A stretch of 29,790 nt of DNA from Thermodesulfobacteriota bacterium. GTDB lineage: Bacteria > Desulfobacterota > Syntrophia > Syntrophales > UBA5619. Below the pieces are notes generated by a model that ran no database searches, had not been told where the DNA came from, and saw only the letters and a program-made list of their open reading frames with translations. Numbering within the stretch: the stretch's first letter is position 1; the number at the start of each line of letters is the position of its first letter. The stretch spans positions 1 to 29,790 of the forward strand of contig JBFMBA010000047.1 of the NCBI GenBank assembly GCA_040755475.1, read 5' to 3'. Below are positions 16,918 to 22,070 of the stretch, in pieces. The position numbers were made by a program, and so were the translations under genes.

Positions 16918-18021
16918 ATGGAAAACCGGAGCGATTTTCGCATCGCCGTTTTACCCGGCGACGGCATCGGGCATGAGATCATGGATGCCGCCCTGGAGGT
17001 GCTGCGGACGCTGGAACGCAAAGCGGGCGGATTCCGGCTTTTCCCGGAGCTGCTGACGGGCGGCGCCGCCCATTACCGCCAGACCGGCATCGACATCACC
17101 GACGAGGCTTTCGAAAGCGCCCGCCGGGCCGACGCCATTCTCTTCGGCGCCATGGGGCTGCCCGATGTCCGCTTCCCCGACGGGACCGAAATCGCCCCCC
17201 ATCTGAGGATGCGCGTGGAGTTCGACCTCTTCGCGGGCGTCCGGCCCGTGAAGGCCTATCCCAACGTGCCGGGCCCGCTGGCCGACCCGCGCGCGGCGAA
17301 GATCGACCTGGTCATCCTGCGCGAATGCACCGAGGGGCTCTTTGCCTCGCGGGGAAAGGGCGAGGTGATCGACGACCGGGAGGCGAGGGAAACCCTGGTG
17401 CTGACCCGGTCCAACTGCGAGCGGTTTTTCGACTTCGGGTTCACTCTCGCCCGCCAGCGGAAGGAAAAAGGCGGCCGGGGCCGGGTGACCTGTGTCGACA
17501 AATCGAACGTGTTTCGCGCCTACGCCTTCTTCCGGAAGATCTTCACGGAGCGGGCCGGCCGCTTTCCCGACATTGCCGCGGGATACCACTACGTCGACGC
17601 CATGGCCCTGGACCTGGTGCGGAAACCCTGGGAGTTCGACGTCCTGGTCGCAGAAAACATGTTCGCCGACATCCTGTCCGACCTGGGCGGCGGGATCATC
17701 GGCGGGATGGGCATGGCGCCCTGCGCCGAAATCGGCGAGCATCACGGGCTGTTCCAGCCCTCCCACGGCAGCGCGCCGGACATCGCCGGAACCGGGCGGG
17801 CCAATCCGACGGCCATGATTCTGTCCGCGGCCATGATGCTCGACTGGCTGGGAAACCGCCACGGTACGGCGGCTCCGGTGGCCGCGGCCCGCCGGCTGGA
17901 GCGCGCCGTCGAGGAAGGCTATGCCTCCCGCGAAATCCGTCCCATGGAGTTCGGGGGACCCCACGGAACAAAGGAGGTGACCCGCGCCGTCTGCGAAAGG
18001 ATCGAGCGGGGGACGGAGTGA
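16918..18021 (+). CDS. Isocitrate/isopropylmalate/tartrate dehydrogenase-family enzyme (substrate uncertain)
   Basis: IAVLPGDGIG, VDKSNV, ENMFADILSD, HGSAPDIAG and ANPTAMILS motifs. Confidence 0.9.
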   Translation: MENRSDFRIAVLPGDGIGHEIMDAALEVLRTLERKAGGFRLFPELLTGGAAHYRQTGIDITDEAFESARRADAILFGAMGLPDVRFPDGTEIAPHLRMRVEFDLFAGVRPVKAYPNVPGPLADPRAAKIDLVILRECTEGLFASRGKGEVIDDREARETLVLTRSNCERFFDFGFTLARQRKEKGGRGRVTCVDKSNVFRAYAFFRKIFTERAGRFPDIAAGYHYVDAMALDLVRKPWEFDVLVAENMFADILSDLGGGIIGGMGMAPCAEIGEHHGLFQPSHGSAPDIAGTGRANPTAMILSAAMMLDWLGNRHGTAAPVAAARRLERAVEEGYASREIRPMEFGGPHGTKEVTRAVCERIERGTE

Positions 18022-18168
18022 AACAACGCACCCGGAGGGCCCGCTTTCCGAAACGGGAGTTCACCCCCTTCCGTCATCCCCTTGCCCTTCGCGCAGGGTG
18101 CTTCGTCCAAGGCGCCTCCCCTGCCGGTCAGGTTTCCTCGACGCGACAAACGGGACGCGAAAATATGA

Positions 18169-18197
18169 TTGACAGGCGGGGAAAAAGCTGTTAGGTG
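18169..18197 (+). promoter_or_regulatory. Probable trp operon promoter
   Basis: Perfect TTGACA at 18169; the 17-bp-spaced -10 (TAGGTG) is poor. Its position fits a transcript starting about 30 nt before the leader ATG. Confidence 0.45.
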
Positions 18198-18234
18198 TGA
18201 AGCCGCTTTTTTGCAAAGCCATGAAGGTGTGACA

Positions 18235-18300
18235 ATGCGCAGATCAGGAAACAGCTGGTGGTGGTGGAACAAAACAACGGGGAGGTTTGTCCGCTGCTGA
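18235..18300 (+). CDS. trpL: trp leader peptide MRRSGNSWWWWNKTTGRFVRC (21 aa)
   Basis: Four consecutive TGG codons (18256-18267), SD-like AAGGTG upstream, and terminators and trpE directly downstream. Confidence 0.92.
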   Translation: MRRSGNSWWWWNKTTGRFVRC

Positions 18301-18321
18301 CCAGATGACGCGATATCGATG

Positions 18322-18365
18322 AAAGCCGTGGGGACCTCTTCGGGACCCCACGGCTTTTTTGTTTT
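18322..18365 (+). terminator. Attenuator terminator T1
   Basis: AAAGCCGTGGGG (18322-33) / CCCCACGGCTTT (18346-57), inner cUUCGg loop, followed by TTTGTTTT. Confidence 0.9.
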
Positions 18366-18377
18366 CCCAGAGAAGCG

Positions 18378-18406
18378 AAAGGCCGTGATGATTCACGGCC
18401 TTTTTT
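18378..18406 (+). terminator. Second leader terminator T2
   Basis: AAAGGCCGTGA-TGAT-TCACGGCCTTT plus TTT; ends 31 nt before the trpE ATG. Confidence 0.85.
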
Positions 18407-18437
18407 CGTGGCAGCCATCACAAAAAAGGAAAGGCCC

Positions 18438-19922
18438 ATGCACACGCCAAACTTTGAAACGTTCGTCCGGCTGGCGAAGGAAGGCAACCTGATTCCCGTC
18501 TATCGGGAGATCCTCGCCGATACCGAAACACCCGTCACCGCCCTCATGAAACTGGCGGACCGCCCCCATCTGTTTCTGCTGGAGAGCGTGGAGGGAGGCG
18601 AGAAATGGGGGCGATACAGCTTCATCGGGGCGGACCTGTCGGCCATCTTCCGCGTACAGAACGGCGAGATCATCGTCGAGCGGGACGGCGGTGCCAGACG
18701 CCACCCCCATGGGGGCAATCCCCTGCGTTTTCTCAAAGAGCTGCTCGGCGAATACCGGCCGGTCCCCGTGGAGGGTCTGCCGAGGTTCTCCGGGGGCGCC
18801 GTGGGGTTTCTCGGTTATGACATGGTCCGGTATTTCGAAAAGCTCCCGAAAGCGGCTGCGGGAGCGCTTCCGACCGACGATGCGGTCTTCATGATCACCG
18901 ACTCGCTTGTGGTGTTCGACAACGTCCGGCACACGATCAAGATCGTCGCCTGCGCCGTCACCGATGACGAACAGGACCTGCGCACAGTCTACGAAAAGGC
19001 CCTCCGCCGCGTCGACGCCATGACCGATTTGCTCAAGGCGCCCCGTCCCGCGAAACCCGAGGCGTCCCGCCGGAGCGCGCCTCTGCCCTTCCGGCCCGAC
19101 ATGACTCCCGATGCTTTCAAATCGATGGTCGTCAGGGCCAAGGAGTACATCGCCGCGGGGGATATCATCCAGGCGGTCATCTCCCAGCGGTTTCAGCGGG
19201 ATAGCGAGGCTGACCCCGTGGATCTCTACCGGGCGCTTCGCCACGTCAACCCGTCGCCCTACATGTTTTTTCTGCGCCTTGGCGGAATGCATCTGATCGG
19301 CTCGTCGCCGGAGGTGATGGTCCGCCTCGAGGAGGGTATCGCGGAACTCAAACCCATCGCCGGGACGAGGCGGCGGGGCAGTAACGAACAGGAGGACCGG
19401 GCACTGGCCGACGAGCTCCTCCAGGACCCCAAGGAGCGGGCGGAGCACGTCATGCTCGTCGACCTGGGCCGGAACGATCTGGGGCGGATTGCCCGGATCG
19501 GAAGCGTCCAGGTGGGGCAGCTCATGGCCGTGGAGCGCTACTCCCACGTCATGCATCTGGTTTCGGACATCCGGGCGCAGATCGCACCGGGCAGGGACTG
19601 CTTCGACGTCCTCCGGGCCACCTTTCCCGCGGGGACCCTGTCGGGGGCGCCGAAAATCCGTGCGATGGAGATCATCGCCGAGCTGGAGCCCTCCCGGCGG
19701 GGGCCATACGGCGGCGCCGTGGGCTACTTCGGCTACGACGGCAACATGGATTTCTGCATCACGATCCGGACGATGCTGATCCGGGACGGGAAAATCTATC
19801 TCCAGGCCGGCGCGGGAATCGTGGCCGACTCCGACCCGGAGACGGAATACAGGGAAACGCTCGGCAAGGCAGAGGGGATGGTCCAGGCGGTCCGACTGGC
19901 GGAGAGCGGATTTGAACTTTGA
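18438..19922 (+). CDS. trpE: Anthranilate synthase component I
   Basis: LLES and NPSPYM (Trp feedback motifs), SSPE, PIAGTR, EHVMLVDLGRND and GTLSGAPK. RBS AAGGAAAGG precedes ATG 18438. Confidence 0.96.
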   Translation: MHTPNFETFVRLAKEGNLIPVYREILADTETPVTALMKLADRPHLFLLESVEGGEKWGRYSFIGADLSAIFRVQNGEIIVERDGGARRHPHGGNPLRFLKELLGEYRPVPVEGLPRFSGGAVGFLGYDMVRYFEKLPKAAAGALPTDDAVFMITDSLVVFDNVRHTIKIVACAVTDDEQDLRTVYEKALRRVDAMTDLLKAPRPAKPEASRRSAPLPFRPDMTPDAFKSMVVRAKEYIAAGDIIQAVISQRFQRDSEADPVDLYRALRHVNPSPYMFFLRLGGMHLIGSSPEVMVRLEEGIAELKPIAGTRRRGSNEQEDRALADELLQDPKERAEHVMLVDLGRNDLGRIARIGSVQVGQLMAVERYSHVMHLVSDIRAQIAPGRDCFDVLRATFPAGTLSGAPKIRAMEIIAELEPSRRGPYGGAVGYFGYDGNMDFCITIRTMLIRDGKIYLQAGAGIVADSDPETEYRETLGKAEGMVQAVRLAESGFEL

Positions 19923-19945
19923 CGGCGTTGCAACGTGCGCTTTAC

Positions 19946-20186
19946 AATCATGCTCCCTCCGCACGCTGGACCTTTTTCGACCCTGCACCTCCTCGCTTCG
20001 CTGAACGAAAAATGAGGGACAGGAAAATGAGGAACAGCTCCCTGGAAAATGAGGAACAGCTCCCTATTTTCAATAAAAAATAGGGAGCTGTCCCCATTTT
20101 CCGGGAAGGCGCCGCGCTGCGTGGGCAGGGGTCCCGAAAAATCTCCGATGCGTGCTCCCGGGAGATGATTTCCATGTCGCGCAAAG
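19946..20186 (-). repeat. Intergenic repeat copy A (arms 19946-20001 and 20133-20186), interrupted by a REP-like cluster
   Basis: The reverse complements of the arms match 21985-22040 (53/56) and 21915-21968 (45/54). Confidence 0.9.
20007..20102. repeat. REP-like cluster: exact 22-bp tandem duplication plus an inverted copy
   Basis: GGAAAATGAGGAACAGCTCCCT at 20022-43 and 20044-65; partial copy at 20007; inverted copy AAAATAGGGAGCTGTCCCCATTTTCC at 20077-20102. Confidence 0.88.
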
Positions 20187-20259
20187 AGGATGTAACCAGT
20201 CAACTCCCGCTCCCCTGGCGGGAGGGGAACAAGGAGTGGAAGATGAAAGGATTGCAGCG

Positions 20260-20844
20260 ATGATACTGATGATCGACAACTACGATTCGTTTACCTACAA
20301 CCTGGTCCAGTACCTGGGCCAGCTCGGGGAAGCGGTGTCCGTCCGCAGAAACGACGAGATCTCTCTCGTGGAGATCGAGGCGATGAAGCCCGAGGCGATC
20401 TTCCTCTCCCCCGGCCCGTGCTCGCCTGAGCAGGCAGGGATCACCGTCGACTCGGTCAGGATGTTCCACCCCCGTATCCCCATCATGGGGGTCTGCCTCG
20501 GCCATCAGGCCATCGCCAGCGCCTTCGGCGGCAGAATTGTGCGGGCGGGCAGGATCATGCACGGCAAGACCTCCCCTATTCTCCATGACGGGCAGACGAT
20601 CTTCGAGGGGATGGCCAGCCCCTTTCCCGCCGGCCGCTACCACTCGCTGCTCGTGGAGCGGGAAACCCTCCCGGCCTGCCTGGAGATCAGCGCCGAGACC
20701 CGGGAGGGAGAGATCATGGGGCTTCGGCACAAGAGATGGCCCGTGGAGGGTATCCAGTTTCACCCGGAATCGATCCTGACGCCGGGCGGAAAGCGGATCA
20801 TCCGAAATTTCCTCAAAATGCTCGATCGAAAAAGGAGGCATTGA
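20260..20844 (+). CDS. trpG: Anthranilate synthase component II (glutamine amidotransferase)
   Basis: MILMIDNYDSFTYNL, SPGP, GVCLGHQ and QFHPES (Cys-His-Glu triad). Confidence 0.96.
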   Translation: MILMIDNYDSFTYNLVQYLGQLGEAVSVRRNDEISLVEIEAMKPEAIFLSPGPCSPEQAGITVDSVRMFHPRIPIMGVCLGHQAIASAFGGRIVRAGRIMHGKTSPILHDGQTIFEGMASPFPAGRYHSLLVERETLPACLEISAETREGEIMGLRHKRWPVEGIQFHPESILTPGGKRIIRNFLKMLDRKRRH

Positions 20845-20846
20845 CC

Positions 20847-21860
20847 ATGATCAGAGAAGGGATCGCCAAGGCAGTCCGCGGGGAAAACCTGCGGGAGGGC
20901 GAGATGACGGCCATCATGACGGAGGTGATGGAGGGAGCGGCGACGCCCGCCCAGATGGCCTCCTTCATGACCGCGCTGCGGATGAAGGGAGAAACGGTGG
21001 AGGAGGTGACCGGAGCGGCCCGCGTGATGCGGCATATGGCGACCCGGATCGATGCGCGCGCGCCGGTCGTGGTGGATACCTGCGGCACGGGAGGGGACGG
21101 AAGCAACACCTTCAACGTCTCCACGACCACCGCCTTCGTGGTCGCCGCGGCCGGCCTGACGGTGGCCAAGCACGGCAACCGGTCCGTTTCCAGCGGCTGC
21201 GGGAGCGCTGATCTCCTCGAGGCCCTTGGCGTCAAAATCGACGCGGACCCGGAGATCATCGAGGAGTGCCTCCAGGAGGTCGGCATCGGCTTCCTTTTCG
21301 CCCCCCGGCTCCACGGGGCGATGAAGTACGCCATCGGTCCCCGCAGGGAGATCGGCATCCGGACCATCTTCAACATGCTGGGGCCGCTCACGAATCCCGC
21401 CGGGGCCACCTCCCAGCTCATCGGGGTATACGACCCGAAGCTCACCGAGATGTTCGCCGGCGTCCTCAAAAACCTGGGAACGAAGCGCGCCTTCATCGTC
21501 CACGGCGCCGACGGCCTTGACGAGGCCACCGTCACCGGCGAGACCCGGGTCTCCGAGCTGAAGGAGGGGCTGATCACGACCTACAACATCGATCCCCAGG
21601 AGCTTTTCGGTGAGACCTACCCCGCCCACGATCTCCGGGGAGGTGACGCCGAGACGAACGCCCGGATCACGACGGAGATCCTCAGCGGTGAACGGCACGG
21701 GGCCTGCAGGCAGATCGTCGTTCTCAATGCGGCGCTGGCCATCGTGGCGGGGGGAAAGGCCCCGACGATCCGGGAAGGGGCAGAAGCGGCGGCGGACTCG
21801 ATCGACAGCGGCGCCGCGCTCAAGAAGCTGCAGGCGCTGATAGAGCGGAGCAACAGTTGA
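20847..21860 (+). CDS. trpD: Anthranilate phosphoribosyltransferase
   Basis: DTCGTGGDG, NVST, AKHGNRSVSS, RTIFNMLGPLTNP and GLDE motifs. Confidence 0.96.
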   Translation: MIREGIAKAVRGENLREGEMTAIMTEVMEGAATPAQMASFMTALRMKGETVEEVTGAARVMRHMATRIDARAPVVVDTCGTGGDGSNTFNVSTTTAFVVAAAGLTVAKHGNRSVSSGCGSADLLEALGVKIDADPEIIEECLQEVGIGFLFAPRLHGAMKYAIGPRREIGIRTIFNMLGPLTNPAGATSQLIGVYDPKLTEMFAGVLKNLGTKRAFIVHGADGLDEATVTGETRVSELKEGLITTYNIDPQELFGETYPAHDLRGGDAETNARITTEILSGERHGACRQIVVLNAALAIVAGGKAPTIREGAEAAADSIDSGAALKKLQALIERSNS

Positions 21861-21914
21861 CTGGCGGCTCCGCACTTGTCTCTGCTCCCTGTTGCACGGA
21901 AGCTACAATGAAGC

Positions 21915-22040
21915 CTTTGCATCACTTGGAAATCGTGTCCCGGAAGCACGCAGTGGAGATTTTTCGGGGCCGCCTGGCTCCGCCGCGAAGCGGGGAGGTG
22001 CAGGGTGGAAAAAGGTCCAGCGTGCGGAGGGAGCCTGATT
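21915..22040 (+). repeat. Intergenic repeat copy B (intact, about 126 bp) between trpD and trpC
   Basis: Inverted homolog of the arms at 19946-20001 and 20133-20186; here the arms are only 16 bp apart. Confidence 0.9.
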
Positions 22041-22070
22041 TTCAACGCGCTCACAATTGAGGATCGTGAC

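Follow-up and report, generated by a model that had tools for sequence, protein, structure and literature searches.

A conserved tryptophan leader with two tandem terminators in Syntrophales and a proposed helix relay between them

Upstream of the tryptophan biosynthesis genes in a 29,790-nucleotide stretch of DNA from a Thermodesulfobacteriota bacterium (positions 1 to 29,790 of contig JBFMBA010000047.1, GenBank assembly GCA_040755475.1; the whole stretch is hereafter 'the window') lies an element that is almost certainly a tryptophan (Trp)-sensing, ribosome-mediated transcription attenuator of the leader-peptide type, controlling the trpEGDCF operon. It consists of a short open reading frame (ORF) with four successive Trp codons, followed by two intrinsic terminator hairpins, T1 and T2, in series ahead of trpE. 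The element is genuine, is conserved and makes functional sense; its architecture, judged from sequence, is far beyond chance and recurs in more than 160 genomes. T2 is proposed to be tied to the same Trp codons as T1 through a relay of alternative helices, a plausible arrangement that comparison of related leaders supports well; it is probable that this relay controls T2 and that both hairpins terminate transcription.

Leader architecture and alternative pairings in the window

The host assembly (84% complete, 459 contigs) belongs to Syntrophales, an order within Thermodesulfobacteriota. In the window, a 416-bp gap separates a gene of the isopropylmalate/isocitrate dehydrogenase family (16918-18021) from trpE (18438-19922, forward strand, as are all features of the leader), which encodes anthranilate synthase component I (TIGR00564, 559 bits against a cut-off of 518) and is followed on its 3' side by trpG, trpD, trpC and trpF. 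Within this gap, a Shine-Dalgarno sequence, GAAGGUG (18223-18229), stands 5 nt 5' of the ATG of a trpL-like leader ORF (18235-18300), which encodes MRRSGNSWWWWNKTTGRFVRC in 21 codons running from the ATG at 18235 to the TGA at 18298-18300. Its four tandem TGG codons (18256-18267), the putative sensor, form the core of segment 1 (18255-18272). Segment 2 (18278-18304) contains the leader stop codon and can pair either with segment 1, through 18284-18304, or with segment 3, through 18278-18298. T1 (18321-18358) is composed of segment 3, its 5' arm and loop (18321-18342), and segment 4, its 3' arm (18343-18358), and runs into a U-tract of the form U6 G U4 (18355-18365). After a spacer of 17 nt between the T1 tail and T2 comes the 9 bp core hairpin of T2 (18380-18401), made up of segments 5 and 6 with a UGAU loop and followed by a U6 tract (18401-18406) that ends 31 nt short of trpE. 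The stems of the two terminators have the core GCCGUG/CACGGC in common.

These six segments complete a chain in which the pairings 1:2, 3:4 and 5:6 compete with 2:3 and 4:5, all at comparable energies. The Trp codons pair with 18284-18304 in the 1:2 hairpin (-21.6 kcal/mol), and 2:3 joins 18278-18298 to 18324-18342 (-26.3 kcal/mol, z = -2.0, this and the other z values being relative to dinucleotide shuffles); T1, or 3:4, has an energy of -27.6 kcal/mol (z = -6.0), and T2, or 5:6, of -20.8 kcal/mol with its flanks included (z = -6.8). The 4:5 helix comprises 11 bp, two of them G-U, and links CACGGCUUUUU (18349-18359), consisting of the base of the T1 3' arm and part of its U-tract, to GAAAGGCCGUG (18377-18387), consisting of an A-tract and the T2 5' arm, at -19.5 kcal/mol (z = -5.0); the first five U residues of the T1 tract thereby double as the distal half of this helix. 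Since, in the pair lists, 2:3 occupies the 5' arm and loop of T1 and 4:5 occupies all but one base of the 5' arm of T2, neither terminator keeps a free nucleation site in the modelled structure when both helices stand.

An earlier note on this DNA, made by reading the sequence, had drawn attention to a WWWW leader, T1, T2 and their shared core, all of which lie where it had placed them, and had read them as a leader-peptide trp attenuator, an identification that the ORF, Trp codons, terminators and trpEGDCF context bear out. The 2:3 antiterminator, which it had paired by eye, is the minimum free energy (MFE) fold of 18275-18345 and proves to be conserved and covarying; its 11-bp 4:5 helix is likewise recovered as the MFE fold of 18345-18392, matches T1 and T2 in its degree of conservation and has undergone compensatory changes. 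The 1:2 hairpin had been absent from it. The note had also suggested folding the transcript with parts of the leader masked. Masking 18240-18277, as though a ribosome stood at the Trp codons, gives 2:3 as the MFE structure when the transcript ends at 18345, and 2:3 together with 4:5 (-50.5 kcal/mol) when it ends at 18389 or 18395, that is, with segment 5 emerged and segment 6 yet to be made; masking 18284-18313, the stop-codon region, lets T1 fold and then T2. With the Trp-codon mask, T1 (and T2) are the more stable at intermediate lengths and at full length, so kinetic trapping would be needed for read-through, as classical attenuation also requires. When the same mask was applied to 152 leaders, ending before segment 6, 4:5 was part of the MFE structure in only 85.

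A mechanism can be proposed on this basis. When charged tRNA-Trp is ample, the ribosome would reach the leader stop codon and cover segment 2, allowing T1 to fold and terminate transcription; polymerases leaking past T1 would then meet T2, which could fold because T1 sequesters segment 4. A ribosome stalled at the four Trp codons would instead cover segment 1, so that segment 2 could pair with segment 3, blocking T1 and leaving its 3' arm (segment 4) and U-tract single-stranded. Before segment 6 is transcribed, these could then capture the A-tract and segment 5, leaving T2 unable to nucleate and polymerase free to continue into trpE. We infer from the pairings that the leader responds to Trp and that 4:5 would block T2. 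As T2 is read approximately 45 nt after T1, the stall would have to persist until polymerase has cleared T2; were the ribosome to depart early, T1 would form late, segment 5 would be released and T2 would terminate. Two terminators would square basal termination and lengthen the decision window, and a tighter shut-off than that of a single-terminator design, as the earlier note proposed, may be expected.

A likely promoter precedes the leader, comprising a putative -35 hexamer, TTGACA (18169-18174), and, 17 nt past it, a putative extended -10 sequence, TGt TAGGTG (18189-18197). The hexamer is found at an equal relative position in related loci, where frames started at its TTG read 'LT..', and in G204, a complete genome of the order (3,179,300 bp) that carries the same leader and that we take to be Syntrophus aciditrophicus SB; this genome's leader, at 894-1058 on the minus strand of L211, has TGc TAAAAG as its -10 sequence, at a spacing equal to that in the window. 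A consensus promoter and terminator scan of the region called neither the promoter nor T1 nor T2; T1 escaped it because the hairpin's loop and stem exceed the scanner's limits, and both terminators were assessed by folding.

Conservation of the leader in Syntrophales

trpE is present in 258 of 339 Syntrophales genomes, and 128 upstream regions were read. A strict pattern of T1, U-run, spacer, T2, U-run and shared core was found in 88 of these, the remainder being mostly variants of the same plan. A covariance model, R1, built from 34 relatives, matched each of the 124 Syntrophales trpE upstream regions searched at between 63 and 144 bits, four of them having lost T2; the window itself scores 134.5 bits and is the single match in its host genome. 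Nearly all relatives encode homologous W-rich leader peptides ending in ..EGFVRC/R, and a run of Trp codons is kept in 99 of 100 Syntrophales leaders, with four consecutive TGG codons in 43, three in 50 and two in six. Among the TrpE relatives in the matches listed, those of Geobacter, Binatia, Chloroflexota and others have different leaders.

Each of the alternative helices is retained across these 100 leaders. Paired cells amount to 97.7% in 1:2 and 97.8% in T1, the upper stem of which covaries, while in T2 they reach 98.3% in the core and 94.7% in the A:U base. The 2:3 helix is paired in 81% of cells, with seven pairs changed on both sides; its median duplex energy over 152 leaders is -22.6 kcal/mol, compared with -12.8 when segment 2 is shuffled, and the per-leader z has a median of -3.6 and falls below -2 in 93%. 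In 4:5, 99.0% of cells are paired across the seven core pairs and 92.2% across the four U:A pairs; its key pair is A-U in 74 leaders, G-U in 19, G-C in six and broken in one, the corresponding T2 pair being broken in four.

The quality of the two hairpins bears on whether T1 is a terminator at all. The topology of the leader is identical to that of the histidine (his) leader, in which A:B, C:D and E:F compete with B:C and D:E, and T2 might accordingly be the real attenuator and T1 an anti-antiterminator resembling C:D, its U-run kept for pairing with the A-tract, such that the relay works on one terminator. The first U residues past T1 do pair with the A-tract in 92% of cases, and the T1 U-tract is broken, with that of T2 in good order, in leaders L177, L220, L227, L245 and L253. 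Such a reading is nevertheless improbable: T1 has at least five U residues among the first six nucleotides of its tail in 96 of 100 Syntrophales leaders (T2 in 95 of 100), this tail is usually U6 G U4 and longer than the 3-6 nt A-tract with which it would pair, T1 is the stronger hairpin (median -22.8 against -18.0 kcal/mol for T2), and lineages without T2 retain T1 and its U-tract. If both hairpins generally terminate, as we favour, the five leaders with a broken T1 tract are of interest in another respect, since T2 is then the sole good terminator and would be linked to the Trp codons only via the relay.

The position of T2 allows a further reading, that it acts post-transcriptionally, as a hairpin protecting the 5' end of processed trpE mRNA or as a translational element masking the trpE ribosome-binding site. 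In most leaders 13-39 nt separate T2 from the start of trpE, a fairly constant short interval, and in the window GGCCUUUUUU could pair with the trpE Shine-Dalgarno region, the T2 3' arm and U-tract supplying the pairing strand (18397-18436). This pairing seems peculiar to the window: in the alignment of relatives the sequence from T2 to the trpE start is not conserved, and insertions of 60-250 nt between T2 and trpE are tolerated (L028, L022, L111, L125 and L196); together with the canonical U-tract, present in those 95 leaders and unnecessary for a stability hairpin, these observations make a post-transcriptional role very unlikely, and termination at T2 is retained as the preferred reading.

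Insertions of 60-250 nt between leader and trpE were also listed for L028, L022, L137, L138, L149, L194, L207 and L208, some of them holding GC-rich palindromes of the CCCCTCCC..GGGAGGGG kind that are possibly small repeat elements. One leader, L176 (genome G067), has decayed to a single Trp codon (..KYWQRH..), a weak T1 stem and a broken U-tract beside an intact T2, and may be an attenuator on its way to loss. In genome G010, of the same genus, trpE is covered by three overlapping matches with an in-frame TGA (contig C43:60819-62294) and may be frameshifted, broken or subject to an assembly error.

The case for a regulated second terminator

Every transcript from the only evident promoter has to pass T2 to reach trpE, so T2 must be bypassed for any expression. 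An unconditional good terminator at this point would only waste transcripts, an argument that carries as much weight as the statistical ones. Segment 4 is, in the alignments, the only conserved partner of the T2 5' arm. Support for 4:5 as the helix that would control T2 comes from the manner in which its strands have changed. At the U-A position of the core common to both stems, families f8, f16 and f20 have C in place of U in segment 5, each time with G in segment 4; a switch from U-A to C-G has been made in all four arms in f16 as well as in L252, L237 and L225, and one lineage has switched from G-C to A-U in all four arms (T1 GGCCAUGG/CCAUGGCC, T2 GGCUAUGG/CCAUAGCC). There are also leaders in which 4:5 is perfect beside an imperfect terminator, namely L177, L219, L254, L194 and a leader upstream of ilvB in the host genome. 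For instance, L177 (f20) combines a perfect 4:5 with a C.A mismatch in T2, segment 5 fitting segment 4 and not segment 6, and in L194 segment 5 retains GGCCGUG despite the divergence of segment 6, T2 having been rebuilt on a longer base.

Covariation across related leaders, to which the earlier note had looked for a check, is evident at the level of the phylum. Among 44 phylum-level leaders, the ten pairs of 4:5 are 94.5% paired, compared with 90.9 +/- 0.5% on shuffling (a level that 0 of 500 shuffles reach), and sliding the 3' partner by one to three columns reduces this to 35-54%; T1 and T2 are 95.4% and 95.6% paired respectively. Six of the ten 4:5 pairs have changed on both sides, against 2.8 in shuffles (reached in 2/500), with 24 doubly changed cells against 7.0 +/- 3.3 (0/500). 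Similarly, in 149 distinct trp-type leaders the native 4:5 energy of -14.0 kcal/mol is lower than the -13.4 +/- 0.12 of permuted partners, none of 1000 permutations being as low, whereas 3:6, a control pairing that forms no part of the proposal, shows no excess over permuted partners. The gain in 4:5 is smaller than that of approximately 3 kcal/mol in 3:4 and 5:6, and such permutation tests serve as supporting evidence only, because they are inflated by the relatedness of the sequences.

Tandem-terminator pairs across the host genome were dropped as a null for the 4:5 energy, being non-discriminating because random arm pairs reach a median of -11 kcal/mol at 62% GC. The idea that the fixed Trp codons dictate the shared core, by way of a chain of UGG, then CCRC, then GUGG and so on, is weakened by the like cores of leaders rich in Tyr/Phe or Val.

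Several observations weigh against a relay acting on T2. The core shared by T1 and T2 makes 4:5 complementarity automatic, so the case rests on why this similarity has been kept; G-U wobble absorbs many changes, lowering the power of covariation tests, and some of the U-A to C-G switches belong to lineages of high GC content, in which base composition by itself could account for the changes in both hairpins. In L242, L251, L257 and L150, T1 and T2 are intact and 4:5 contains a central C.A mismatch; in the first three T2 alone has made the G-C to A-U switch, giving this single mismatch, and in L150 segment 5 has changed alone, with both helices broken. Single-terminator forms also exist, T2 having been lost or degraded in L137, L138, L170 and L175, so that T2 is dispensable. 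Of the 152 masked leaders, 59 favour T1 over 2:3 and 4:5 combined, and the relay would there need kinetic trapping, as does the 2:3 helix of Escherichia coli. Lastly, in 21 ilvB leaders the difference between native and permuted 4:5 is not significant (180/2000) and the 3:6 control is about equal.

Part of this would be accommodated if T1 were the whole attenuator and T2 an unregulated back-up, or a leftover duplicate of T1, that scales expression down, the 4:5 complementarity being a by-product of common origin and GC-rich stems. All odd segments can pair with all even ones, 3:6 in the ilvB set being as stable as 4:5, and the lineages lacking T2, the leaders in which T1 is thermodynamically favoured and those tolerating 4:5 mismatches would all be unsurprising. 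Most transcripts would, however, be wasted if T2, 31 nt before trpE, were strong and constitutive, yet it has been kept phylum-wide; the upper stem of T1 drifts by compensatory change, whereas the arms that it shares with T2 change only together with T2. With the excess of double changes in 4:5 over shuffles and the behaviour of segment 5 in L194 and L177, this leaves an unregulated T2 unlikely, if slightly less so than a T1 that does not terminate, and a T2 controlled by the relay remains the reading that we prefer.

The sequencing runs that contain the window are DNA metagenomes in which it has small shares, with no RNA run among them. Four RNA-seq runs on G204 give contigs that are unbroken across trpE, T2, T1 and the leader but, being assembled contigs, have 3' ends, expression levels and termination beyond their reach. 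These contigs end at positions 1033-1095 of L211, 33-95 nt short of the predicted start, and a gap then extends to 1228-1388, which fits transcription that starts just 3' of the predicted promoter and runs through the leader into trpE.

The broadest form of the proposal is that one stalled ribosome rules two serial terminators, with T2 providing a second, timed check that the ribosome is still stalled, in effect kinetic proofreading of how scarce tRNA-Trp is, and that this is a general architecture of Thermodesulfobacteriota for Trp, aromatic and branched-chain operons; we regard the prospects of this being correct as evenly balanced.

Leaders at other operons and comparison with known attenuators

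Beyond the order, R1 matches in other families of the phylum score up to 133 bits and prove on inspection to be two-hairpin leaders. Downstream genes at these loci were named from the N-terminus by eye, family models having been applied to the trp genes and to ilvB of the host. W-rich leaders with two hairpins precede trpE and a fused TrpE(G)-type gene, trpD (L224, L231, L234 and L240), trpB2 (L229, L238, L242, L251 and L233) and a DAHP synthase of aroF type (L232, L235, L239 and L256). A Phe-rich leader of the same form is found ahead of a class-I DAHP synthase (L254), Tyr/Phe-rich leaders ahead of an aldolase-like ADH-synthase homologue (L243, L246, L249, L250 and L255), and Val-rich leaders ahead of ilvB. 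The element is not special to its host genome, being phylum-wide and serving several operons.

The ilvB type includes a second tandem-terminator leader in the host genome itself, found by a genome-wide scan on the minus strand of another contig (C83:2110-4300, L262). Its ORF (1899-1988) encodes MIHQSQSYSRFLALGVVVLVGTGAAALRL, a Val/Leu-rich peptide (..LALGVVVLVG..), and is followed by T1 (1851-1875), a T2 with an internal mismatch (1805-1834) and ilvB (124-1779; TIGR00118 at 620 bits), the 4:5 helix comprising 12 bp at -18.7 kcal/mol. Leaders of the same plan with runs of Val codons occur at 30 Syntrophales ilvB loci. A filter on ORF coverage was also tried as a means of finding further attenuators and proved useless, as spurious long frames blanket GC-rich DNA.

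Leader-peptide attenuation is textbook biology, though nearly all studies concern enterobacteria and a few further groups, whose leaders have a single terminator for each sensor. The leader in the window shares the features of this class: a Trp-rich ORF with a Shine-Dalgarno sequence ahead of the operon, intrinsic terminators between the two, a 2:3 helix that would exclude T1, a stop codon inside segment 2 and masked folds that behave as expected. Tandem riboswitches and T-boxes have one sensor per terminator, in the form of two aptamers or two T-boxes, and may sharpen or widen the response. Like the trpL leader of E. coli and other enterobacteria (RF00513), the element has a short ORF with tandem Trp codons, 1:2 and 3:4 hairpins opposed to 2:3, and a stop codon at which a ribosome would cover segment 2. 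Unlike E. coli trpL, it has three or four Trp codons where E. coli has two, a second terminator with the added 4:5 and 5:6 pairings, and no similarity to it in sequence or model; a cmscan of 17900-18700 against Rfam at E values up to 10 gave no match to Trp_leader RF00513, the matches listed lying far below gathering scores.

The element would work as the E. coli trp attenuator does, lengthened along the lines of the his leader of Salmonella and E. coli, in which two chained antiterminator hairpins, B:C and D:E, replace A:B and C:D and so block E:F (PMC4046918); there too, a six-segment chain is set in motion by a stalled ribosome that starts a two-step relay, and three successive hairpins oppose two shifted ones. 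In the his leader only E:F is described as a terminator, whereas here the middle hairpin, T1, is a canonical terminator with a U6 tail, such that restriction of termination to the last hairpin does not hold, save in L177, L220, L227, L245 and L253, which do fit it. The tandem attenuators of Salmonella mgtCBR similarly place two conditional termination points in series before one operon, but depend on two leader ORFs (PMC3641672), whereas here there is a single leader ORF and T2 would be slaved to T1 by base pairing. Sinorhizobium meliloti trpL provides a non-enterobacterial case, a leader-peptide trp attenuator before trpE(G) that releases a terminated RNA, rnTrpL, and, unlike the leader described here, has a single terminator (PMC6614838); both rnTrpL and the leader peptide have trans-acting roles (PMC6614838).

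The earlier note knew of no description of such a relay. The principle was already known from the his leader; the novelty here lies in the middle hairpin being a terminator too. No tandem-terminator leader-peptide attenuator, nor any trp attenuator from Syntrophus or the delta-proteobacteria, was found in the literature to the extent that it was available; Lopatovskaya et al. (2010), a survey said to stress 'chains of RNA helices' in attenuators, may already describe one. A design, conserved across a phylum, in which successive alternative helices would place two terminators under a single sensor overturns nothing. If the proposal is true, RNA folding alone can multiply termination efficiencies and would give a wider dynamic range without a repressor, as well as a longer period over which ribosome stalling is judged, and the leader would represent a compact natural part for synthetic regulators. 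For genome annotation it constitutes an unrecognised RNA family, absent from Rfam, which marks putative Trp-controlled genes (trpD, trpB2, DAHP synthase and an iorA-like gene) in poorly studied anaerobes.

Some of the matches depart from the common plan. L214-L218 (genus g103, family f55), which at 109-133 bits come close to the Syntrophales leaders, stand ahead of a fused TrpE(G)-type anthranilate synthase that lies 70-280 nt further 3', with extra sequence intervening. In L241 and L259, W-rich leaders (..NWWRWWW.. and ..FWWCWWWC..) with one terminator only precede the iorA-like gene, the N-terminus of which, read by eye, resembles the alpha subunit of indolepyruvate ferredoxin oxidoreductase; these would be Trp-sensing leaders on a catabolic or salvage gene. 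Within the trp operon of the window, the gaps after trpE (19923-20260) and after trpD (approximately 21860-22070) are unusually long for an operon, and the TrpG domain begins at residue 37 of a frame that opens at 20152.

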